Positions 11,293 to 41,534 of a stretch of 64,000 nucleotides of DNA are shown here, piece after piece. The position numbers and the translations under genes are program-made. The notes beneath the pieces were generated by a model that worked only from the letters and a program-made list of their open reading frames with translations, was not told the DNA's origin and did not search any database. This stretch comes from a virus. Numbering within the stretch: position 1 is the first letter of the stretch; every line of letters starts with the position of its first letter. The stretch spans positions 250,950 through 314,949 of IMG/VR virus record IMGVR_UViG_3300020202_000061. One strand, 5' to 3'.

Positions 11293-11370
11293 ACGCTATA
11301 TACTAAGAGGCACCGAGGGTTTCAGATGCCTCTATGGGGATTCCAAATCAACAACGGGGTCGAACAACGA

Positions 11371-13305
11371 ATGTCTAATCTCTTCGCGGATTTCAAGACA
11401 ACTTTCGAAAAAACCAGGAAAACCGAACTCTCTCTCCAGGAATACTTGGACCTGTGCAAACAGGATCGAATGGCTTACGCCTGGGCGGTGGAGAGAATGC
11501 TGGCGGCTATCGGCGAGCCCAAGCTAGTTGACACGTCCGAGGACCCGCGCCATTCCAGAATCTTCCTGAACCGCACCATCAAGGTGTATGACGTGTTCAA
11601 GGATTTCTACGGGATGGAGGCGACCATCGAAAAGATCGTCGCCTTCTTCATGAAGGCCGCTCAAGGTCTGGAAGAGAAGAAGCAGGTTCTCTATCTGATG
11701 GGGCCGGTTGGATCGGCTAAGTCCTCTCTGGCAGAGCGTCTCAAGGCTCTGATGGAGAAGATGCCGATCTACGTGCTCAAGGCGGGTGATCAAATCAGCC
11801 CGGTGTTCGAGAATCCCTTGGGTCTGTTCGATCCGAACGTGTGGAGTGATCGCCTCCAAGAGGAATACGGGATTCCTCGTCGTTATCTGACCGGGTTGAT
11901 GTCGCCTTGGGCGGTAAAGCGCCTGAACGAGGACTTCGACGGGGATATCAGCAAGTTCAGTGTGGTGAAGCTCTACCCGAGCAAGCTCAAGCAGATAGCG
12001 ATCTCCAAGGTCGAACCCGGTGACGAGAACAACCAAGACATTTCGTCTCTGGTCGGTAAGGTTGATATCCGCAAGCTGGCGGAGTTCTCCGCTCGTGATA
12101 CCGATGCCTACAGCTACTCCGGTGGTCTCTGCTTGGCCAACCAGGGCGTGCTGGAGTTCGTCGAGATGTTCAAGGCACCGATCAAGATGCTGCATCCGAT
12201 GCTCACCGCGACCCAGGAGGGCAACTACAACGGCACCGAGGCGATCTCTGGTATTCCGTTCCAGGGTGTGATTCTGGCCCACTCCAACGAATCCGAATGG
12301 GAGTCGTTCAAGAGCAACAAGAACAACGAGGCATTCCTCGACCGCATCAGCATCATCAAGGTCCCTTACTGCCTGCGTGTCACGGACGAGACCAAAATTT
12401 ACCAGAAGCTCTTGCGTGATTCGTCCCTGGACAAGGCTCCATGCACACCCAAGACGCTGGAATTGCTCTCCCAAATGAGCGTGCTTTCCCGTCTGATCTA
12501 TCCGGAGAACTCTTCGATCCATTCGAAGATGAAGGTCTACGATGGTGAGAACATCAAGGAAACCGATCCCTACGCCAAATCTGTTCAGGAATATCGTGAA
12601 CTGGCCGGGGTCAACGAGGGTATGACCGGTCTCAGCACCCGCTGGGCTTTCAAGGTGCTGTCATCGGTGTTCAATTATGATCCGAACGAGATCGGCGCGA
12701 ATCCGGTCCATCTGTTCCGTATCTTGGAGGACAAGATCACTGAGGAACAATTCCCGAAGGAAGTCGAAGAGGACCTTCGTGAACACCTCCAGTGGATCAA
12801 GGCCAAGTACATCGATTTCATCGGCAATGAAATCCAGGTTGCCTACCTGGAGTCCTACACCGAATACGGCCAGAACATGTTCGACCGCTACATCGTCTAT
12901 GCGGATCATTGGATCGAGGATCGGGACTATCGTGATTCCGAGACCGGCGAGATGTACAACCGCGAAACCCTGAATAAGGAACTCGAAAAGATCGAGAAGC
13001 CCTCCGGTATCGCGAATCCCAAGGAATTCCGTAACGAGGTGGTCAACTACTCTCTCCGTTACAAGGCCAACCACGGCAAGTATCCGAGGTGGAACTCCTA
13101 CGAGAAGCTCAAGGAAATCATCGAGAAGAAGATGTTCGCGAACATCTCTGATCTCCTGCCGGTGATCTCGTTCGAGAAGAAATCCTCCGAGGAGCACGAG
13201 AAGAAGCACAAGGATTTTGTGCAGCGCATGAAAGAGAAGGGATACAGCGAGCGCCAGACCCGTATCGTCGTGGACTGGTTCATGAAGGTACAGAAGTCCA
13301 ACTGA
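11371..13305 (+). CDS. prkA: PrkA/YeaG-family serine protein kinase
   Basis: N-terminus LQEYLDLCKQDRMAYAWAVERMLAAIGEP and P-loop YLMGPVGSAKSSLAERLK parallel E. coli YeaG; alternative start 11326. Confidence 0.85.
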   Translation: MSNLFADFKTTFEKTRKTELSLQEYLDLCKQDRMAYAWAVERMLAAIGEPKLVDTSEDPRHSRIFLNRTIKVYDVFKDFYGMEATIEKIVAFFMKAAQGLEEKKQVLYLMGPVGSAKSSLAERLKALMEKMPIYVLKAGDQISPVFENPLGLFDPNVWSDRLQEEYGIPRRYLTGLMSPWAVKRLNEDFDGDISKFSVVKLYPSKLKQIAISKVEPGDENNQDISSLVGKVDIRKLAEFSARDTDAYSYSGGLCLANQGVLEFVEMFKAPIKMLHPMLTATQEGNYNGTEAISGIPFQGVILAHSNESEWESFKSNKNNEAFLDRISIIKVPYCLRVTDETKIYQKLLRDSSLDKAPCTPKTLELLSQMSVLSRLIYPENSSIHSKMKVYDGENIKETDPYAKSVQEYRELAGVNEGMTGLSTRWAFKVLSSVFNYDPNEIGANPVHLFRILEDKITEEQFPKEVEEDLREHLQWIKAKYIDFIGNEIQVAYLESYTEYGQNMFDRYIVYADHWIEDRDYRDSETGEMYNRETLNKELEKIEKPSGIANPKEFRNEVVNYSLRYKANHGKYPRWNSYEKLKEIIEKKMFANISDLLPVISFEKKSSEEHEKKHKDFVQRMKEKGYSERQTRIVVDWFMKVQKSN

Positions 13306-13316
13306 GGGCTATCATA

Positions 13317-14606
13317 GTGACCACGGTCATTGACAGACGTAAGACCGACCGCCAGAAGAACCTCTCCAATAGGCAGAGGTTCATCAAAAGAGCCAAGGAA
13401 GCGATCAAGAAGTCGATCCGTGGAGCCATCCTCAATAAGGATCGCTCGATCAAAGACTCATCCGGCGGTAATGTTCGAATCCCCAACAAAGGGACGACAG
13501 AGCCGAATTTCCGCAATGGAGACGGTGGTCGTAAGATCATCGTTCGTCCGGGTAATCCAGGCACTGTGCCGGGTGACAAGATTCCACGTCCCAGAAAGGA
13601 TCAGACTTCGGGCCGTGGTAACAGTGATCCATCCAAAGACCCCGCTGAGTTGATGGATGAGTTCGAGTTCACGCTGACCCGTGAGGAATTTCTGGACTTC
13701 TTCTTTGAGGACCTGGAATTGCCCAACTTGGTCAAGACCGCCCTCAAAGAGGTGGTCGAGTACAAATGGTCCCGTTCGGGATTTGCCTCGGTCGGTATGC
13801 CGTCGAATCTCGACATTACCCGAACCTTCATCAATTCGATGGGTCGCCATTTCGCTCTGGCCGGAGCCTACCAGAAAAAGATCGACGAACTTCGCGCTAA
13901 TGGTGGATCGGAAGAGGATATCGCGCTCTGGGAGAAGAGGAAGCGGACCATCCCGTTCATGGATGACGTGGACCTGCGCTATCGCCTGTTTGTGAAGCAG
14001 CCCAAGCCGATCACCAAAGCGGTAATGTTCTGTCTGATGGACGTATCTGGCAGTATGGGCGAGTACGAGAAGGACTTGGCCAAGCGTTTCTTCATGCTCC
14101 TCTACATGTTTCTGGAGCGCAAATACGAGTCGGTCACCGTGGTGTTCATCCGTCATACCACCGAAGCCAAAGAGGTGGACGAGCAGGAGTTCTTCTACTC
14201 GAAAGAATCAGGTGGAACCGTGGTCAGCACGGCTCTGGAAATGACTGCTGATCTGATTCAGCGGCGCTTCAACAGTTCAGACTACAACATCTACGTGAGC
14301 CAGTGTTCGGACGGCGACAATGCCTACGATGACAACTCCGTGTGCACCCAGATCATCCGTGAGGATATTCTGCCTTATGTCCAGTATTTTGCGTATGTCC
14401 AGGTCGGACATCAGCGCGATGAGATGGCCAACATGTGGGGTGTGTTTGCGGGTCGTCTTGGGAACACCACGAGCACGAATTCCCTCTACGAGGTTTATAA
14501 GGAGATCGAGAAGAATACCTCCCATTTCAAGGTGAAGAACCTGAATGGTCCTGCCGACATCTACCCGGTGTTTCGCGAACTCTTTGAGAAGGACATCAAG
14601 GTATGA
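13317..14606 (+). CDS. yeaH: YeaH/YhbH family protein (DUF444, UPF0229)
   Basis: VIDRRKTDRQKNLSNRQRF…EFLDFFFEDLELPNL…VMFCLMDVSGSM…FFYSKESGGTVVS…DIYPVFRELF colinear with E. coli YeaH. Confidence 0.85.
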   Translation: MTTVIDRRKTDRQKNLSNRQRFIKRAKEAIKKSIRGAILNKDRSIKDSSGGNVRIPNKGTTEPNFRNGDGGRKIIVRPGNPGTVPGDKIPRPRKDQTSGRGNSDPSKDPAELMDEFEFTLTREEFLDFFFEDLELPNLVKTALKEVVEYKWSRSGFASVGMPSNLDITRTFINSMGRHFALAGAYQKKIDELRANGGSEEDIALWEKRKRTIPFMDDVDLRYRLFVKQPKPITKAVMFCLMDVSGSMGEYEKDLAKRFFMLLYMFLERKYESVTVVFIRHTTEAKEVDEQEFFYSKESGGTVVSTALEMTADLIQRRFNSSDYNIYVSQCSDGDNAYDDNSVCTQIIREDILPYVQYFAYVQVGHQRDEMANMWGVFAGRLGNTTSTNSLYEVYKEIEKNTSHFKVKNLNGPADIYPVFRELFEKDIKV

Positions 14607-16093
14607 GCCTGCTCTGGAATGATAATGAATGGACTTTCCCGCTCATCGACAAGGTCTACAAGGAGATCGAGCAGATCGGCGTGGGTGAGATGGGTCTGGA
14701 CATCTTCCCGAATCAGATCGAGGTCATCAGCAGTGATCAGATGCTGGACGCTTATGCAAGCCATGCCATGCCAGTCATGTATAAGCACTGGTCCTTTGGC
14801 AAGTCGTATTCGGTCAACAAGAAACTCTATGAGAACGGTCAGCAGGGTCTGGCCTACGAGGTCGTAATCAACTCGAATCCCTGCATTGCCTATCTCATGG
14901 AGGACAACACCATGACCATGCAGGCTTTGGTCATGGCCCATGCCAGCATCGGTCACAACAACTTCTTCAAGACTAACTACCTGTTCCAGCAGTGGACCGA
15001 TCCGGATGGGATCATCGACTACCTGATCTTCGCCAAGAATTATGTGGCGAAGTGTGAGGAGCGATACGGTGCCGAACGAGTCGAGGAAGTTCTCGATTCC
15101 TGTCACGCTCTCATGGACCAGGGTATGGACCGCTTTAAGCGAGCCCGCAAACGTTCCCGTCAGGAGGAGAAGCTCCGTGCGGCCGAACGTGAAGCCTATC
15201 ACCAAAGTCGTGTGAGTGAGCTTTGGCCGGACACCTGGAAGTCCGAGACCCCGGCCCAGAAGGAAGAACGCAAGAAGCGGATTCTTCCGGAGCCCGAGGA
15301 CAACATCCTCTACTTCATCGAGAAGAACTCGCCGATCCTGGAGCCGTGGGAACGAGAGATCGTTCGTATCGTCCGTAAGGTATCGCAGTATTTCTGGCCT
15401 CAGATGCAGACCCAGGTCGGTAATGAGGGCTGGGCCACCCATACCCATTACTTCATTATGAATCGTCTCTACGAGAAGGGTCTGATCTCGGACGGTTCTC
15501 TGTTGGAGTTCTTCAAGTCCCACACGGGCGTTATCGCGCAGTATCGCATGCAGCGTCTGAACCCGTACTGCCTGGGATTCAACATTTTCCGCGACATCAA
15601 GCGTATGTGCGAGAAACCCACCGATGAGGATCGTGAATGGTTCCCCGATCTGGTCGGGATGAACTGGCTGGAAGCCGCGAAGGACGCGCGTGAGAACTAC
15701 AAGGATGAGAGCCTGATCCTCCAGTACCTCAGCCCCAAGGTGATCCGCGATCTTAAGCTTTTCTCGATCCTGGATGATTACGGCACGGACTCGATGAACT
15801 ATATCGTCCAGAACATCCACGACCGGGAAGGCTACAAGGAAGTTCGTCGATCCCTCTCTCGCAACTACGACATCAACATGAGAATTCCACAGATTCAGGT
15901 GTCGGATGTCAATGTGGATGGGGATCGCAAACTGATCCTTCGCCATACCCGTCACAACTATGTGCCGCTGGATCAGGCCGATCTCAAGGAAACTCTCCTC
16001 CATGTGAGGCGTCTCTGGGGGTTTGCGGTGCGTCTGGACTTCTACAATCCCGGCGCGGTCAGTCCCACGGATTGGGTAGCGGTGGGTGAATAA
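14603..16093 (+). CDS. spoVR: SpoVR/YcgB family protein
   Basis: 496 aa; conserved SpoVR stretches (MYKHWSFGKSY, GHNNFFK, GWATHTHY). Confidence 0.85.
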   Translation: MSLLWNDNEWTFPLIDKVYKEIEQIGVGEMGLDIFPNQIEVISSDQMLDAYASHAMPVMYKHWSFGKSYSVNKKLYENGQQGLAYEVVINSNPCIAYLMEDNTMTMQALVMAHASIGHNNFFKTNYLFQQWTDPDGIIDYLIFAKNYVAKCEERYGAERVEEVLDSCHALMDQGMDRFKRARKRSRQEEKLRAAEREAYHQSRVSELWPDTWKSETPAQKEERKKRILPEPEDNILYFIEKNSPILEPWEREIVRIVRKVSQYFWPQMQTQVGNEGWATHTHYFIMNRLYEKGLISDGSLLEFFKSHTGVIAQYRMQRLNPYCLGFNIFRDIKRMCEKPTDEDREWFPDLVGMNWLEAAKDARENYKDESLILQYLSPKVIRDLKLFSILDDYGTDSMNYIVQNIHDREGYKEVRRSLSRNYDINMRIPQIQVSDVNVDGDRKLILRHTRHNYVPLDQADLKETLLHVRRLWGFAVRLDFYNPGAVSPTDWVAVGE

Positions 16094-16385: not shown

Positions 16386-16388
16386 CCC

Positions 16389-16417
16389 TTGACAATTCCA
16401 AGATTGCGGAATAAATA
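16389..16417 (+). promoter_or_regulatory. sigma70-like promoter driving tRNA-Ile/tRNA-Leu
   Basis: TTGACA 16389-16394; 17-nt spacer; TAAATA 16412-16417. Confidence 0.65.
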
Positions 16418-17470: not shown

Positions 17471-17722
17471 CTATCTCCCGTTGATCTTTCCGCTGGTGAA
17501 GTCGTGGAACTGGAAGGTCCAGGCTACCGGGCAAACCCCGATCAGTGGGTGTGCCACACAATTGTGGGTGAACCACCAGAAATGATGCACCAGGAGTGAT
17601 TTCTTCAACAGCTTGAACAAACGGATGCGATAGTGGAATCGTTCTTGTGAGGTCTGGTGAGCAAAATCCATCTGGTCCCCCTTGGTTATTCCCAAGATAT
17701 CCGAGAAACCTCTTGACTTCAA
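17471..17722 (-). CDS. hypothetical protein
   Basis: ORF 83 aa; stop adjacent to the downstream start. Confidence 0.35.
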   Translation of the reverse strand: MKSRGFSDILGITKGDQMDFAHQTSQERFHYRIRLFKLLKKSLLVHHFWWFTHNCVAHPLIGVCPVAWTFQFHDFTSGKINGR

Positions 17723-17741
17723 GCAGGGGATTCGCTAAATA
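17713..17741 (+). promoter_or_regulatory. sigma70-like promoter driving the tRNA-Trp-like gene
   Basis: TTGACT 17713-17718; 17-nt spacer tcaagcaggggattcgc; TAAATA. Confidence 0.6.
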
Positions 17742-20093: not shown

Positions 20094-20243
20094 ATGGTAG
20101 AACGAGGCGACAAGATCACCCTGAAAGAGGCGATTGCGGAAGCGCAACGCGGAACTCTGAAACAGCGAGTCGCCCGACATCGCAAACGCCTGAAACGCAA
20201 GTATGGACTCGGACCCAAGCCGAAACGCTCCAAAACCCCTTGA
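20094..20243 (+). CDS. hypothetical small basic protein (49 aa)
   Basis: ATG 20094; Lys/Arg-rich; 3' end runs into the tRNA promoter. Confidence 0.25.
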   Translation: MVERGDKITLKEAIAEAQRGTLKQRVARHRKRLKRKYGLGPKPKRSKTP

Positions 20244-20268
20244 CATCCTCGGGGTTATCCTCTAAATA
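20240..20268 (+). promoter_or_regulatory. sigma70-like promoter driving the class II tRNA (CGT)
   Basis: TTGACA 20240-20245; spacer tcctcggggttatcctc; TAAATA. Confidence 0.65.
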
Positions 20269-20277
20269 CCCCGTTAT

Positions 20278-20363
20278 GCCGGGATGGCTGAGTGGTCGAA
20301 AGCAGGCGTTTCGTAAGCGTCCGAAGCAATTCCTCGCAGGTTCGAATCCTGTTCCCGGCTCCA
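20278..20363 (+). tRNA. class II (Ser-type scaffold, long variable arm) tRNA with anticodon CGT
   Basis: 86 nt; acceptor gccggga/tcccggc; Ser-like D-arm tggctgagtggtcgaaagc; anticodon stem ggcgt/gcgtc with loop ttCGTaa; variable arm about 15 nt; T-arm gcaggttcgaatcctgt; CCA. Confidence 0.7.
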
Positions 20364-24998: not shown

Positions 24999-25084
24999 GC
25001 CAGGATGGCTGAGTGGCCGAAAGCAGAGCCTTTGTAACGCTCCGGGGAAACCCCACGCAGGTTCGAATCCTGTTCCTGGCTCCA
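24999..25084 (+). tRNA. class II (Ser-type scaffold) tRNA with anticodon TGT; paralog of the 20278 gene
   Basis: 86 nt; acceptor gccagga/tcctggc; D-arm tggctgagtggccgaaagc; anticodon stem gagc(c)/(c)gctc with loop ttTGTaa; long variable arm; T-arm gcaggttcgaatcctgt; CCA. Confidence 0.7.
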
Positions 25085-29599: not shown

Positions 29600-29610
29600 T
29601 CGGAAACTTC

Positions 29611-29639
29611 TTGACACCCGAGGGGTATTCACCTAAATA
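29611..29639 (+). promoter_or_regulatory. sigma70-like promoter driving the tRNA-Ser cluster
   Basis: TTGACA 29611-29616; spacer cccgaggggtattcacc; TAAATA. Confidence 0.65.
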
Positions 29640-37796: not shown

Positions 37797-37830
37797 ATAT
37801 TGGAAACCACTCGGTATTCCTGTAAAATGC

Positions 37831-37859
37831 TTGACATTTTCGACATTTTCGAGTATAAT
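37831..37859 (+). promoter_or_regulatory. consensus sigma70 promoter (TTGACA-17-TATAAT) for peptide deformylase
   Basis: TTGACA 37831-37836; TATAAT 37854-37859. Confidence 0.7.
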
Positions 37860-37865
37860 CCTCCG

Positions 37866-38297
37866 ATGCCGTTGAAGCTGATCCCGGACACCGATCCCGT
37901 ATTGCATGAGAAGGCCGAACCCGTTCAGAACGTGAACGAGGAAGTCGAGCCCGTGCTGATGGAAATGATCGCGATCATGGTCCGCGCCGGGGGCGTCGGT
38001 TTGGCCGCGCCCCAGGTCGGAATCAAGAAGCGTTTCTTCATCATCGCCTACGGCGGTCTGACCAACGTCTACATCAATCCGGAGATCGTCAAGTCGGAGC
38101 CCAAAACCGTCAATATGGTGGAGGGTTGCCTGAGTTATCCCGGTCAGAATCGTGAAATTGTTCGTCACGAGCGCATCCGCGTGGCCTACACCACGATCAC
38201 TGGAGAGCACAAGTCTCACTACGTGAATGGGATGATGGCCCGCATCTTCCAGCACGAACTCGATCACCTTGATGGAATTGTTTTCTTGGAACGATAA
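37866..38297 (+). CDS. def: peptide deformylase
   Basis: motif 1 GVGLAAPQVG, motif 2 EGCLS, motif 3 HELDHLDG. Confidence 0.85.
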   Translation: MPLKLIPDTDPVLHEKAEPVQNVNEEVEPVLMEMIAIMVRAGGVGLAAPQVGIKKRFFIIAYGGLTNVYINPEIVKSEPKTVNMVEGCLSYPGQNREIVRHERIRVAYTTITGEHKSHYVNGMMARIFQHELDHLDGIVFLER

Positions 38298-38302
38298 AAC
38301 TC

Positions 38303-38337: not shown

Positions 38338-39219
38338 ATGAGAAGAGCACAAGGCGGTCAATTCGTCTACGAGGGTGGGCAAGTCATCGGCTTGGAGTTC
38401 GGCGCGGATTACGTGGCCGAACACGAATGCGGGATCGAGGACCTACAGCACGAATTCGGTATCCCACTGAGACCGACCTGGACCGAATTCGGAATCGAGG
38501 CTCGTCGTATCACCAATGTCCCGGAACGTCTGTCCTTGCTGGACTGGGACGCGAGGGGGACGATGCATCGAGGCATCATCTTCGACGACTACCGCTCCTA
38601 CAAGCATCGCCTGGACAAGGCTCAGATCGATTCCCTGCAACTGTCCGACCCCAAGGACAACTGGTGGAGGAACTCGCCTCCGCCGGAATCCCGATTGATC
38701 ACGGCTTGGAAACGAAATTCGTTTGGATTTCTCGTTCATACCGAAACGCTAGGTCGGGACATCCTCGCAATCAGTGATCTCTACGACGCGTTCCTGACCA
38801 TGGACCTTGCCATGTGGGCCAGTGGTAACCAACTCAGCGGCTCCATGCTCCGTGGGGGTCTGGTCCTGGCCATCGTGAGTCGAGTGCCCGAGAAGTTTCG
38901 CGAACACCTAAAGGATCAGGATCAGAACCAACTCGCCCTGGATGAGGCCGCGCACCTGACCGGTCTGGTCCAACGTGTGAATGAGGCCCGAGGGCAGCGT
39001 CAATGGCCGGATTGGTCACCATTCGCCCATTTCTCACTACGCCCTGCATGGGTTGCGCAGAAGCAATCCGCACTGAACGGAGCCGAAACCACCTACCCGG
39101 TGTGTTTCTGGTTGAATCCGCTCGATCAGAAAAACCAGAAGGCCGGATACTACACAGTGGAGCAACTCGATGAGTGGCTTGCCGGTCGTGGTCCGGTCTA
39201 CAGAGAGGTCACCCAGTGA
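38338..39219 (+). CDS. hypothetical protein
   Basis: ORF 293 aa. Confidence 0.55.
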   Translation: MRRAQGGQFVYEGGQVIGLEFGADYVAEHECGIEDLQHEFGIPLRPTWTEFGIEARRITNVPERLSLLDWDARGTMHRGIIFDDYRSYKHRLDKAQIDSLQLSDPKDNWWRNSPPPESRLITAWKRNSFGFLVHTETLGRDILAISDLYDAFLTMDLAMWASGNQLSGSMLRGGLVLAIVSRVPEKFREHLKDQDQNQLALDEAAHLTGLVQRVNEARGQRQWPDWSPFAHFSLRPAWVAQKQSALNGAETTYPVCFWLNPLDQKNQKAGYYTVEQLDEWLAGRGPVYREVTQ

Positions 39220-39937: not shown

Positions 39938-40275
39938 TGCTGGTAAACCTGATCGATGCGCGGTCGAATCGCTACGATGTCCATTGTGATGCGGAGCTTC
40001 GACCATCCTGGTTGGACAACGGATTGCCCGGCGCAACGCAATTCCCGGTGATCCGACCGAACACGGACATGGCCAAGCCCATGTTGTCTCTGCACATGCC
40101 CAACACCTGCTTGATCGAGATCATCAACCTCTGCCAGACCCTGGGATTTCCGGTCACCGCATATCTCTATGATCGGGGAACTCAGACCCGAATCCAGACC
40201 GAATACAAGCAGGTCGAAACCCTTCTGGAGCAGACAACCACAGAGAAAATCAACGCTCCAGAAAAAACCTCTTGA
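39937..40275 (+). CDS. hypothetical protein
   Basis: ORF 112 aa. Confidence 0.45.
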   Translation: MLVNLIDARSNRYDVHCDAELRPSWLDNGLPGATQFPVIRPNTDMAKPMLSLHMPNTCLIEIINLCQTLGFPVTAYLYDRGTQTRIQTEYKQVETLLEQTTTEKINAPEKTS

Positions 40276-40300
40276 CTTCCCGAACGGTTTCCCCTAAATA
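40272..40300 (+). promoter_or_regulatory. sigma70-like promoter of the main tRNA operon
   Basis: TTGACT 40272-40277; spacer tcccgaacggtttcccc; TAAATA 40295-40300. Confidence 0.65.
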
Positions 40301-40304
40301 CCCA

Positions 40305-40542
40305 TCACAAGCGGTGCCCAGCGGAGATGGTTGGGAGTAATTAAATGGTGAGTAATCATCAGCCGCTTCAACTTTTGAGGAACGAGTTACCACAATGACC
40401 CTGATTCGACGCAAACGAAAGATTAGCGCCTAATCACTCCGTCAGTCCACGGAGTGGTTCTAGGCTCCGTGGGTAATGGTACTCTCCCTAACTCCCACCT
40501 AAATCTGAGATAGGACGCCCCCACAAGGGGTTGTTGCTGTTT
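40305..40542 (+). ncRNA. structured leader of about 240 nt upstream of the tRNA cluster (function unknown)
   Basis: lies between promoter and first tRNA; mutually exclusive hairpins actccgt/acggagt versus ccacggag/ctccgtgg; long-range aagcgg/ccgctt pairing; cccc-acaa-gggg hairpin. Confidence 0.35.
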
Positions 40543-40619
40543 GTTCCCGTAGCTCAACTGGATAGAGCACCAGACTACGAATCTGGCGGTTGGGGGTTCG
40601 ACTCCCTCCGGGAACGCCA
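40543..40619 (+). tRNA. tRNA-Arg (ACG)
   Basis: acceptor gttcccg/cgggaac; D-arm tagctcaactggatagagc; anticodon stem ccaga/tctgg with loop ctACGaa; T-arm gggggttcgactccctc; CCA. Confidence 0.85.
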
Positions 40620-40638
40620 CAGCACCTATCGACCACAT

Positions 40639-40715
40639 GATCCTGTAGCTCATCGGACAAGAGCGCCGTCGTGCGAAGGCGGAGGTAGTGGGTTCGATTC
40701 CCACCTGGATCGCCA
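40639..40715 (+). tRNA. tRNA-Arg (GCG)
   Basis: acceptor gatcctg/ctggatc (one T·T mismatch); anticodon stem ccgtc/ggcgg with loop gtGCGaa; T-arm gtgggttcgattcccac; CCA. Confidence 0.7.
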
Positions 40716-40725
40716 AGTAAACCGA

Positions 40726-40798
40726 GACCCAGTAGCTCAATGGAGAGAGCACCGTCGTTCGAAGGCGGGAGATAGAGGTTCAAGTCCTCTTTGGGTCG
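40726..40798 (+). tRNA. tRNA-Arg (TCG)
   Basis: acceptor gacccag/ttgggtc; anticodon stem ccgtc/ggcgg with loop gtTCGaa; T-arm agaggttcaagtcctct; no encoded CCA. Confidence 0.75.
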
Positions 40799-40834
40799 CT
40801 AACGAGGAATAGTCCCGTGTACAACATCAAGGAG

Positions 40835-41032
40835 ATGGTCAAAGACAAACGCGTGAAGTTCGATTTCTACAGGGCCGGAGAACTCTGGTACATCACGGAG
40901 TGTGGCTTCCGCTTTCCGGTTCCGATCAGCGACACCGGAGATGCGGTGTTCAAGTCGGAGGATAAGGCGATCTTGTTCATGCGTTGGATCAGAAAGCACG
41001 TCGCGTCGTGTGAGGAAGGCGCGAAAGGGTAA
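40835..41032 (+). CDS. hypothetical protein embedded in the tRNA cluster
   Basis: ATG 40835 preceded by RBS aaggag within ORF 40817..41032; 65 aa. Confidence 0.45.
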   Translation: MVKDKRVKFDFYRAGELWYITECGFRFPVPISDTGDAVFKSEDKAILFMRWIRKHVASCEEGAKG

Positions 41033-41039
41033 TTGGAGT

Positions 41040-41114
41040 GGGCCGGTAGCTCAGAGGCAGAGCAGCATCCTCTTAAGTTGACGGTCGTGGGTTCGATTCC
41101 CACCCGGCCCTCCA
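41040..41114 (+). tRNA. tRNA-Lys (CTT)-like
   Basis: perfect acceptor gggccgg/ccggccc; D-arm tagctcagaggcagagc; T-arm gtgggttcgattcccac; CCA; anticodon loop ctCTTaa but anticodon stem only 3 of 5 bp (gcatc/gttga). Confidence 0.6.
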
Positions 41115-41119
41115 AATTC

Positions 41120-41195
41120 GCCAGATTACAGTTTAGTGGTAGAACACGCGGCCGATAACCGTGGAGCGGGGGTTCGATTCCCTCATCTGGCACCA
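41120..41195 (+). tRNA. tRNA with anticodon GAT (Ile-type) and atypical features
   Basis: 76 nt; acceptor gccagat/atctggc; CCA; anticodon stem cgcgg/ccgtg with loop ccGATaa (C33); 2-nt insertion before D-stem gttt/gaac. Confidence 0.6.
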
Positions 41196-41196
41196 A

Positions 41197-41279
41197 GGGC
41201 ACGGAGCTTTAGAGCCGACAGGAAAGGCAAGAGACTCTTACTCTCCCAGCATGGGGTTCGACTCCTCCCGTGCCCGCCA
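41197..41279 (+). tRNA. non-canonical 83-nt tRNA-like gene (8-bp acceptor, 4-bp T-stem, expanded D region) with Lys-type anticodon loop ctCTTac
   Basis: acceptor gggcacgg/ccgtgccc (8 bp); disc g + CCA; T-arm ggggttcgactcctc; D region 24 nt with hairpin gcc-gacaggaaa-ggc; anticodon stem gaga/tctc. Confidence 0.5.
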
Positions 41280-41280
41280 A

Positions 41281-41355
41281 GGTGGATTCTGTCTAATGGT
41301 AGGACGCGCGCCTGATGAGCGTGAAGTAGAGGTTCGATTCCTCTATCCACCACCA
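41281..41355 (+). tRNA. tRNA with anticodon GAT (G37)
   Basis: acceptor ggtggat/atccacc; CCA; anticodon stem cgcgc/gcgtg with loop ctGATga; T-arm agaggttcgattcctct. Confidence 0.65.
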
Positions 41356-41356
41356 A

Positions 41357-41432
41357 GGACCTGTAGCTGAGAGGTTTAGCGGCTGGCTTTTACCCAGCGT
41401 CAACGGGAGTTCGATTCTCTCCAGGTCCACCC
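41357..41432 (+). tRNA. tRNA-Lys (TTT)
   Basis: acceptor ggacctg/caggtcc; anticodon stem gctgg/ccagc with loop ctTTTac; T-arm gggagttcgattctctc. Confidence 0.75.
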
Positions 41433-41446
41433 AGTTTCCCAGTAAT

Positions 41447-41530
41447 GGGCCGCGAGAGTATAGCAGTACAGGAATCTGCACCGGGCTTTTAATCCGGCCT
41501 CAAGGGGTTCGACTCCTCCGTGGCTCGCCA
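41447..41530 (+). tRNA. non-canonical 84-nt tRNA-like gene (8/4 architecture, expanded D region) with anticodon loop ctTTTaa; paralog of the 41197 gene
   Basis: acceptor gggccgcg/cgtggctc (8 bp, two G·U); g + CCA; identical T-arm ggggttcgactcctc; D hairpin gcag-tacaggaat-ctgc; anticodon stem ccggg/tccgg. Confidence 0.5.
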
Positions 41531-41534
41531 ATTG

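Follow-up and report, generated by a model that had tools for sequence, protein, structure and literature searches.

A conserved leader mini-ORF and alternative hairpins ahead of a jumbo-phage tRNA operon suggest ribosome-dependent transcription attenuation

The 64,000-nucleotide stretch of DNA analysed here (the window) covers positions 250,950 to 314,949 of the IMG/VR virus record IMGVR_UViG_3300020202_000061. It belongs to a jumbo phage of the T4 superfamily, whose family-B DNA polymerase shares 33-34% identity with the enzymes of Sinorhizobium phage Phosso, Ralstonia RsoM2USA, Salicola SCTP-2 and Escherichia phage 121Q; a neighbouring gene is found on public contigs of up to 401 kb. The window carries 17-18 tRNA genes (ARAGORN and Rfam), and one group of them is preceded by a leader, 40305-40542 on the + strand, that is the subject of this study. 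An initial annotation, made from the letters alone, had described this leader as non-coding and had seen in its alternative pairings an attenuator, a processing signal or a small RNA. We find that it instead holds a conserved open reading frame (ORF) of 12 codons, 40395-40433, which we refer to as the mini-ORF. The pairing motifs named in that annotation are all present (actccgt 40436-40442, ccacggagt 40447-40455, ctccgtgg 40466-40473), as is the promoter that it had recognized at 40272-40300 (TTGACT and TAAATA), one of six copies in the window. The leader and its promoter comprise:

40265..40310, + strand: promoter; -35 TTGACT 40272-77, 17-nucleotide (nt) spacer, -10 TAAATA 40295-300
40377..40382, + strand: Shine-Dalgarno-like GAGGAA, 12-13 nt 5' of the mini-ORF start
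40395..40433, + strand: leader mini-ORF, ATG ACC CTG ATT CGA CGC AAA CGA AAG ATT AGC GCC TAA; 12 codons, predicted peptide MTLIRRKRKISA
40404-40424, + strand: proposed sensor codons, AUU CGA CGC AAA CGA AAG AUU
40428..40465, + strand: hairpin H12, the predicted antiterminator equivalent (2:3); 5' arm GCCTAATCACTCCGT (TAA 40431-33 inside), 3' arm ACGGAGTGGT..TAGGC
40447..40472, + strand: hairpin H23, in which CCACGGAGT pairs with GCTCCGTGG; it excludes H12
40480..40506, + strand: G-free C-rich tract TACTCTCCCTAACTCCCACCTAAATCT, candidate Rho entry (rut) site
40517..40542, + strand: terminator-like hairpin GCCCC-CACAA-GGGGT with U-rich tail TTGTTGCTGTTT, reported by a terminator scanner; the tail ends at the first base of tRNA-Arg

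The promoter overlaps the stop codon of an upstream ORF of 112 amino acids (aa) and would start transcription near 40307. Identical copies are present in two assemblies, one from ENA and one from Logan, and two diverged homologues of the 112-aa protein, with 73% and 71% identity, lie on contigs L166 and L162/L163/L164 (hereafter L166 and L163). A scan of IMG/VR with the promoter motif recovered a further relative, L028 (the same as L160 and L173-175), a phage contig of 38% GC. The promoter is kept in L163, L166 and L028. The ribosome-binding site, ATG, frame and stop codon of the mini-ORF are likewise kept in four of four lineages (window, L166, L163 and L028), the ribosome-binding site reading GAGGAAC in the first three and AAGGAAAG, at an equal distance, in L028. 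Thirty nucleotides of the mini-ORF, ATTCGACGCAAACGAAAGATTAGCGCCTAA, are identical in the window, L163 and L166, where the flanking 112-aa protein is just 71-73% identical, and form the longest perfectly conserved block of the leader. In L166 and L163 the mini-ORF consists of ATG CAG followed by the same 30 nt and would encode MQIRRKRKISA. That of L028 reads ATG TTT AAC CAT CCA CGA CCT AAA CGA TTT ATT AGC CAT ATC GGC TAA (MFNHPRPKRFISHIG) and retains CGA-nnn-AAA-CGA-nnn-ATT-AGC in frame, with two whole codons swapped and a G+C content 17 points lower. The indels that separate the lineages within the mini-ORF are of 3, 3 and 6 nt, all multiples of three. Since L028 keeps exact codons while two others are swapped, and since the base-pairing partners of the mini-ORF segment differ between window-type and L028-type leaders, the comparison suggests that the mini-ORF is constrained at particular codons rather than by its peptide or by a shared pairing scheme.

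The operon behind the leader is composed as follows:

40543..41531, + strand: tRNA operon proposed to be controlled (ARAGORN and Rfam calls)
40543-40619, + strand: tRNA-Arg(ACG), the first tRNA after the leader
40639-40715, + strand: tRNA-Arg(GCG)
40726-40799, + strand: tRNA-Arg(TCG)
40817-41032, + strand: 71-aa ORF
41040-41114, + strand: tRNA-Lys(CTT)
41121-41190, + strand: tRNA-Ile(GAT), an Rfam call at 41 bits missed by ARAGORN
about 41197-41280, + strand: Lys(CUU)-like element, sub-threshold, missed by ARAGORN
41281-41355, + strand: tRNA-Ile(GAT)
41357-41431, + strand: tRNA-Lys(TTT)
about 41452-41531, + strand: Lys(UUU)-like element, sub-threshold, missed by ARAGORN

Its tRNAs are exclusively Arg, Lys and Ile, and the gene order Arg(ACG), Arg(GCG), Arg(UCG), 71-aa ORF, Lys(CUU), Ile, Ile, Lys(UUU) is common to L162-L164 and L166. 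The two sub-threshold Lys-like elements have intact T-arms and acceptor ends, with an aberrant D region in one. No promoter-like site was detected before 41908, and the Arg, Lys and Ile tRNA genes probably form one transcription unit. Two further features of the operon may be recorded here. The tRNA-Arg(GCG) gene is kept in the relatives L162-L166; Arg tRNAs with a GCG anticodon are rare in bacteria. The 71-aa ORF belongs to a family with no Pfam domain and with more than 200 clusters at 90% identity (E <= 1e-15), scattered across the tRNA regions of many jumbo phages.

The core of the mini-ORF peptide, I-R-R-K-R-K-I, matches the Arg/Lys/Ile tRNA set of the operon. By standard wobble rules, CGA is read by UCG or ACG, CGC by GCG or ACG, AAA by UUU, AAG by CUU or UUU, and AUU by GAU. 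A mini-ORF with at least seven consecutive Arg, Lys or Ile codons arose in none of 5000 shuffles, and a run of six in 0.04%. We screened about 200 tRNA-array starts, 138 from jumbo-phage loci and about 65 from other phages, and the only outliers were the window-type family and a Bertelyvirus ORF that is discussed below. Among the 138 jumbo-phage starts, cognate-codon runs of seven were confined to the window-type family, and the next best score was that of L028 (P-R-P-K-R, with Arg, Lys and Pro tRNAs downstream). Both the conservation of the ORF and its codon-tRNA match are thus results of computation. The codons used are minor ones in this phage, CGA making up 13% of its Arg codons, AAA 26% of its Lys codons and ATT 22% of its Ile codons. 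The mini-ORF is probably translated.

The stop codon of the mini-ORF lies in the 5' arm of H12. In RNA letters H12 pairs GCCUAAUCACUCCGU with ACGGAGUGGU..UAGGC around the core ACTCCGT/ACGGAGT and has 15 bp and a predicted energy of -20.6 kcal/mol; H23 pairs CCACGGAGU with GCUCCGUGG around the core CCACGGAG/CTCCGTGG and has 9 bp and a predicted -17.4 kcal/mol. The two hairpins overlap in a common segment, 40447-40458. The alternative pairing noticed in the initial annotation is real: when the leader is shuffled 5000 times with its dinucleotides preserved, two perfect stems of at least 7 bp with a common arm appear in 0.1% of the shuffles. The fold of the leader as a whole barely beats its shuffles (z = -1.95 on the + strand and -1.73 on the - strand). 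Conserved structure in related phages, on which that annotation had made its proposal hinge, is found as well, for the hairpins persist in L166 and L163. Over the 46-nt switch segment the window and L166 differ by seven substitutions and one indel, and 14 of the 15 pairs of H12 are kept, with one compensatory change (A-U to G-C), one U·G that becomes C-G and one pair lost. H23 loses one A-U pair and gains three (GCC:GGC); in both L166 and L163 it is rebuilt as CCACGG-A-GCC / GGC-A-CCGTGG, at -17.5 kcal/mol. The predicted energies in L166 are -17.9 kcal/mol for H12 and -17.5 kcal/mol for H23, and forcing either hairpin shifts the ensemble energy by 1-2.5 kcal/mol only.

The position of a ribosome on the mini-ORF was modelled as an unpaired block that extends from 15 nt before the first base of the A-site codon to 12 nt after it. 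Folding constrained by this footprint gives H12 when the A-site is at any codon through AAA and H23 at most positions from the second CGA to the stop codon; the AAG position in the window is an exception, at which the upper part of H12 stays. The ribosome-free fold is H23 in L166 and L163. By computation, then, the hairpins are bistable and the choice between them depends on ribosome position. The leader can be divided into four attenuator regions, of which region 1 is the 5' half of the ORF, region 2 the stop-codon strand, region 3 ACGGAG... and region 4 CUCCGUGGG. As modelled, a stalled ribosome yields 2:3 pairing (H12) and finished or absent translation yields 3:4 pairing (H23), which is the logic of the trp leader.

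L028 presents the more complete case. The same promoter and transcription-start region (CTAAATACATATCACAAG) is followed by a 160-nt leader and then by tRNA-Arg(CCU) and tRNA-Lys(CUU), and the leader fold has z = -4.76. Its ORF codons CAUCCACGA..AAACGA pair with CGUCCCGUGAUG (1:2); AGCGUCC-C-GUGA / UCAU-A-GGACG-A-CU forms a 2:3 antiterminator of -11.4 kcal/mol; and CUCAUAGGACGA / UCGAUCCUGUGAG forms a 3:4 terminator of -15.6 kcal/mol that is followed by the U-tract AUUUGUUUUG and qualifies as an intrinsic terminator. Energies of the trp leader are similar. With a modelled ribosome at the R, P, K and R codons 2:3 can form, and with one at the stop codon region 2 is covered. In the folding model the L028 leader thus has the canonical attenuator layout, and of the three functions that the initial annotation had left side by side, the attenuator gains most support, from the mini-ORF, from toggling with ribosome position and from this layout. 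The AT-rich phage represented by L028 also carries a second promoter of the same type (L173 15470-15580, also L174), where an 81-nt leader with the hairpin GAAGATTG/CAATCTTC and GUUUUU stands directly before tRNA-Arg(UCU); an Arg-rich mini-ORF is not evident in this 81-nt leader of L173/L174.

Between the switch and the first tRNA lie two elements that could convert the choice of hairpin into an output. The first is the G-free tract, with runs of 27-30 nt at corresponding positions of the window, L166 and L163 leaders and of 29 nt in L028, where the tract sits after the intrinsic terminator. Shuffles reach such a run length in 2-4% of cases for the three window-type leaders and in about 20% for L028. 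The tract has 40-45% C, is short for a Rho entry site and is partly sequestered in the H12 state only, its CCCAC (40495-99) then being predicted to pair with GTGGG (40470-74). The second is a hairpin with a U-run, found between switch and first tRNA in all lineages and non-homologous in sequence in L163 and L028: L166 keeps CCCC-TCA-GGGG, and L163 has an unrelated hairpin and T-run at the same place. In L163 diverged sequence, still with a hairpin and T-run, takes the place of the last ~50 nt of the leader and of the first tRNA, and between tRNA-Arg(ACG) and tRNA-Arg(GCG) the same contig (1840-2440; also L162 and L164) has a 138-aa Cys-rich ORF. This ORF, with no Pfam family recorded for it, may encode an HNH-type homing endonuclease, and the replaced end of the leader looks like co-conversion of flanks during homing.

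As the best reading we propose that the leader works as a transcription attenuator of the leader-peptide kind, operated by ribosomes and placed ahead of a phage tRNA operon; the evidence is computational throughout, and the case for this reading is in our judgement evenly balanced. RNA polymerase, probably the host enzyme, would initiate at about 40307, and a ribosome would translate the mini-ORF. If Ile, Arg or Lys tRNAs were scarce or uncharged, the ribosome would be slowed at the early codons AUU CGA CGC AAA, leaving the stop-codon strand 40428-42 free to pair with 40449-65; this pairing, H12, would block H23 and constitute the ON state, in which transcription proceeds into the Arg, Lys and Ile tRNA genes. 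A ribosome that reached the stop codon would cover the 5' arm of H12 and so allow H23, presumably the OFF state, which in the relatives would also form when no ribosome is loaded. Candidates for the OFF step are Rho loading on the exposed tract 40480-40506 and termination or pausing at the weak hairpin and U-run 40517-42. Physiologically, the leader may serve to keep the supply of the phage's own tRNAs in homeostasis, or it may respond to host tRNAs being depleted or cleaved.

A number of observations weigh against the attenuator. Unlike its relatives, the window leader without a ribosome favours H12, by 2.5 kcal/mol. The distance of 12-13 nt between ribosome-binding site and AUG is longer than optimal, and the minor codons and perfect nucleotide conservation of the mini-ORF would also fit a non-translated RNA motif. 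The sensor codons CGA and AAA of L028 do not correspond to the anticodons of the next tRNAs, Arg(CCU) and Lys(CUU), so the codon-tRNA match of L028 holds at the amino-acid level only, and its tRNA-Pro has a separate promoter. In the window, H23 is followed by GUAAUGGUAC with no U-tract and does not qualify as an intrinsic terminator. The hairpin at 40517-42 is weak, at about -7.3 kcal/mol, and in constrained partition-function folding its formation is unchanged by the H12/H23 state; the probability of a hairpin of this type is about 0.97 in L166 and 0.03-0.22 in the window, in every state. The cccc-acaa-gggg hairpin of the initial annotation is therefore present (within 40518-40530) and not thermodynamically coupled to the switch, and because it is weak and state-independent the folds reveal no complete thermodynamic path from switch to terminator. 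There are, finally, only four distinct leader sequences, which leaves covariation statistics thin: scans of IMG/VR, JGI metagenomes, GTDB genomes and INPHARED gave no further family members, with a pattern that in the JGI metagenome scan was too strict near the transcription start (TCACAA) and missed L162, and none of the about 65 array starts from other phages has a leader like that of the window.

In INPHARED no close relatives were found and matches were at the tRNA level only; the flanking 112-aa and 293-aa proteins led to no relatives in IMG/VR; and loci of the 71-aa family (25 in IMG/VR and 9 in Logan/ENA) held no leader homologue. The pattern ACTCCGT..ACGGAGT..CTCCGT has no match in IMG/VR, and of the 119 matches to the CGAnnnAAACGAnnnATTAGC pattern, mostly due to chance, L028 alone is real. 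A pattern that combined ribosome-binding site, ATG and core recovered L028 alone from IMG/VR and gave six matches in GTDB genomes; the six were rejected as family members, being near the estimated chance number and showing no resemblance to the leader by nhmmer. The Rfam scan that the initial annotation had advised returned no match at E <= 10 within 40305-40542, hence no T-box and no curated leader or small-RNA family, and for the L028 and L166 leaders, at gathering thresholds and at E <= 10, it returned chance-level miRNA and PinT hits only (E 6-9). A tmRNA or degenerate tRNA, brought to mind by the resume-like string 'GCA AAC GA', was rejected: ARAGORN and Rfam are silent in 40301-40542 and there is no T-arm.

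The 5' part of the leader holds two further features:

40309..40368, + strand: 5' hairpin P1, in which AAGCGG 40309-14 pairs with CCGCTT 40363-68
40345-40398, + strand: ORF1, 17 codons, inside a window-only insertion; ribosome-binding site GGGAG 40333-37; its TGA overlaps the ATG of the mini-ORF (ATGA)

The long-range aagcgg/ccgctt pairing of the initial annotation is P1, and a 5' hairpin is conserved at this position, L163 and L166 having a short one (GCGGC-act-GCCGC) without ORF1; the long loop is not conserved, for it results from a 45-nt insertion (within 40315-40362) present in the window only. L028 has neither hairpin nor ORF1. The stop/start overlap of ORF1 may give translational coupling in the window lineage. 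ORF1 was rejected as the leader peptide, since it is absent in all relatives, and a minus-strand 54-aa ORF, 40250-40414, was rejected as a gene, since it lacks conservation and runs across both the promoter and the insertion peculiar to the window.

The promoter of the leader belongs to a repeated 46-nt motif, AAACCnCTTGACnT-N15-CTAAATAcCC. Six copies of CTTGAC-N17-(C)TAAATA occur in the window with at most one mismatch, against 0.03 expected by chance, often with AAACC on the 5' side:

212-241, 16388-16417, 17712-17741, 20239-20268, 29610-29639 and 40271-40300: promoter copies, all upstream of tRNAs

At five of the six the tRNA begins 5-23 nt past the -10 element, so these sister units may be transcribed nearly leaderless, with little need for trimming of their tRNAs by RNase P; the copy at 40271 alone has a gap, of 242 nt. 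Because the sister promoters drive their tRNAs directly, the leader is an addition to this operon and not a general need of tRNA expression. Elsewhere in the window, two 86-nt tRNAs (20278-20363 and 24999-25084), 81% identical and with the long variable arm of a class II shape, both carry Thr anticodons, CGU and UGU. The combination is unusual and could be a mis-assignment or an atypical tRNA identity. Host-like auxiliary genes are also present: a trio of PrkA kinase, DUF444 and SpoVR-like genes at 11326-16093 and, according to the gene tables of relatives, a peptide deformylase gene (window about 37800-38300) just upstream of the 293-aa ORF at 38338.

The main rival to the attenuator is a structured 5' leader without translational sensing, which would serve precursor stability, processing by RNase P or RNase E or folding of the first tRNA, the mini-ORF being incidental or an RNA- or protein-binding motif. 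The 30-nt block without synonymous variation, the use of minor codons, the U at -1 and U-rich stretch ahead of every first tRNA, the insensitivity of the tRNA-adjoining hairpin to the switch and the capacity of the Caulobacter phage leaders BL47 and C1 (see below) to pair with the tRNA 5' acceptor strand would all be expected of such a leader. It has to contend with the five sister promoters of the phage, which need no leader, and with an ATG, frame and stop that persist through three in-frame indels and a shift in G+C from 55% to 38%. Processing does not require two exclusive hairpins of equal strength, and it leaves the match between codon content and downstream tRNA set unexplained. Moreover, no mispairing between leader and tRNA is predicted for the window type, and the tRNA cloverleaf is predicted to be intact whatever the leader. 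We regard a purely structural or processing role as unlikely.

An improbable second possibility is that the leader is a small RNA gene, from which an RNase P cut at 40542/40543 or premature termination frees a trans-acting RNA of ~235 nt (or ~170 nt). Precedents exist in the attenuator-derived rnTrpL and in the stable RNAs of the T4 tRNA cluster. Attenuator RNAs are able to act in trans (PMC6614838), the structure of the leader is conserved, and from what is established of tRNA processing the maturation of the first tRNA by RNase P should free the leader as a separate RNA. No Rfam family matches the leader, no target complementarity was identified, and the window-only insertion together with the replaced 3' end of L163 shows that large parts of it are dispensable. 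A small RNA would leave the codon content unexplained, and it is compatible with attenuation rather than an alternative to it.

It is highly improbable that the mini-ORF encodes a trans-acting basic micropeptide ((M)..IRRKRKISA), active for example in nucleic-acid binding, with the hairpins tuning its translation. The conserved ORF and its ribosome-binding site are what a micropeptide would need, and a predicted long-range helix between the spacer that separates this site from the AUG and AUGGUACUCUCC could gate initiation. The absence of any synonymous change in 10 codons, set against a neighbouring gene of 71-73% amino-acid identity, points to constraint at the nucleotide or codon level instead, and the L028 peptide differs (RPKRF versus RRKRK) though the exact codons stay. 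Leaders that act in cis typically have an ORF placed as this one is, between a promoter and a tRNA operon and with the stop codon falling within the switch.

Polybasic +x+ motifs (Arg/Lys-x-Arg/Lys) stall drug-bound ribosomes, as in macrolide-inducible leader peptides, and RRKRK in the mini-ORF peptide has this pattern; it might halt ribosomes with a disturbed exit tunnel or peptidyl-transferase centre, so that the operon might be induced under translation stress or by antibiotics. Even granting that a tRNA array of Anabaena is inducible by translation inhibitors (PMC8421152), such a stress sensor is the least probable of the rivals: it explains neither the flanking Ile codons nor the exact match to the downstream tRNA set, the codons of the Bertelyvirus analogue are cognate to the two tRNAs behind it, and a lytic jumbo phage has no reason to sense macrolides.

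The Bertelyvirus analogue is found in the Caulobacter phages CcrBL9, CcrSC, BL47 and C1, all of which keep a 15-codon ORF, MTFTATIRTVSRRRR or MTFSGTIRKTIRRRR, that stops 17-18 nt upstream of tRNA-Arg(UCU) and tRNA-Arg(CCG). The ORF contains AGA...AGG CGG CGG CGC TAA, and four of its five Arg codons are read by those two tRNAs. AGGCGGCGGCGCTAAG is invariant, whereas synonymous differences (ACT/ACC, TTT/TTC, ACG/ACC) occur among the N-terminal codons. In CcrBL9 a run of at least four Arg codons is reached in 0.34% of shuffles, and in phage C1 the ORF is annotated inside a 45-aa hypothetical protein. Like the window, these phages have a conserved short ORF rich in codons of the tRNAs directly downstream, with the stop codon in a small hairpin followed by a C-rich spacer. 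In sequence and architecture the ORF is unrelated to the window leader: it is non-homologous, its stop is 17-18 nt from the tRNA, and it has neither a switch of the H12/H23 type nor a terminator-like hairpin. 

In BL47 (L190) and C1 (L191), codons 4-6 of the 15-codon ORF (UCG GGC AC), ~60 nt 5' of tRNA-Arg(UCU), contain CGGGCAC, which is complementary to the 5' acceptor strand GUGCCCG of that tRNA, and the lowest-energy fold prefers this pairing over the acceptor stem. The predicted fold hints that folding or maturation of the tRNA may depend on translation in these two phages. A further short coding sequence, in Agrobacterium phage Atu_ph07 (L186 7623-7751, AUZ95228.1), specifies a 42-aa protein with RAEAAMFWYPI, 11 residues that draw on precisely the amino acids (Ala, Arg, Phe, Pro, Ile, Tyr, Trp, Met and Glu) served by a nine-tRNA array 174 nt downstream; it was set aside as a curiosity, a strong intrinsic terminator lying between ORF and array.

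The attenuator proposed here shares with the enterobacterial attenuators (trpL, hisL, leuL, thrL, pheL and pheM of pheST) a promoter-proximal mini-ORF with a run of regulatory codons and overlapping hairpins chosen by ribosome position, and L028 shares with them the full 1:2 / 2:3 / 3:4 layout and the U-tract terminator. It differs in that it would control tRNAs rather than biosynthetic enzymes or synthetases, in that its sensor mixes Ile, Arg and Lys to mirror the downstream tRNA set, in that H23, at the position of the terminator, has no U-tract, and in that it resides in a lytic jumbo phage. In Rho-dependent attenuators based on upstream ORFs (mgtL-mgtA, corL-corA, tnaC, speFL and, in part, hisL), translation of the upstream ORF, or a stall on it, refolds the leader so that a C-rich entry site for Rho is hidden or exposed (PMC12360218). 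By analogy with mgtL-mgtA and corL-corA, the 27-30-nt G-free C-rich tract after H23, with GUGGG:CCCAC pairing in the H12 state only, may serve Rho; the tract is short for Rho entry and the output, unlike theirs, is a tRNA operon. T-box riboswitches are alike in function, in that read-through of a terminator in the leader depends on the state of one particular tRNA, but they bind the tRNA directly, without a ribosome, and control genes for synthetases, biosynthesis or transporters. The nearest functional precedent is the trn operon of Anabaena sp. PCC 7120, a supernumerary and horizontally mobile tRNA array, normally silent, whose expression is switched on by impaired translation (PMC8421152). 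That array is chromosomal, not phage-borne, and no leader peptide is reported for it; the words attenuator, leader and terminator are absent from the paper (PMC8421152). In the full-text literature we found leader-peptide attenuation described for amino-acid operons, pheST and resistance genes, and none for tRNA operons or phage tRNA clusters.

More generally, and tentatively, since we think it somewhat doubtful, phages may autoregulate their tRNA genes through leader mini-ORFs written in the codons of the downstream tRNAs, as a tRNA homeostat or a counter-defence sensor. The ribosome would signal a shortage of tRNAs, be it in the phage's supply or among host tRNAs degraded or cleaved in the course of infection, and so open the matching tRNA operon to transcription. 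Such control would have arisen at least twice, once in the Caulobacter Bertelyvirus phages and once in a T4-superfamily jumbo lineage with its AT-rich relative. The reason for which phages carry tRNA genes is debated, with codon-usage matching, replacement of degraded host tRNAs and evasion of anticodon-loop nucleases among the proposals, and to our knowledge almost nothing is known of how phage tRNA expression is regulated. The Bertelyvirus analogue resides in cultured phages of a model host, Caulobacter crescentus, and the leader would offer a compact, portable part for synthetic biology that senses tRNA supply. If the attenuator reading is right, it would mean direct, demand-driven control of tRNA genes, by which the phage measures decoding capacity for particular codons.

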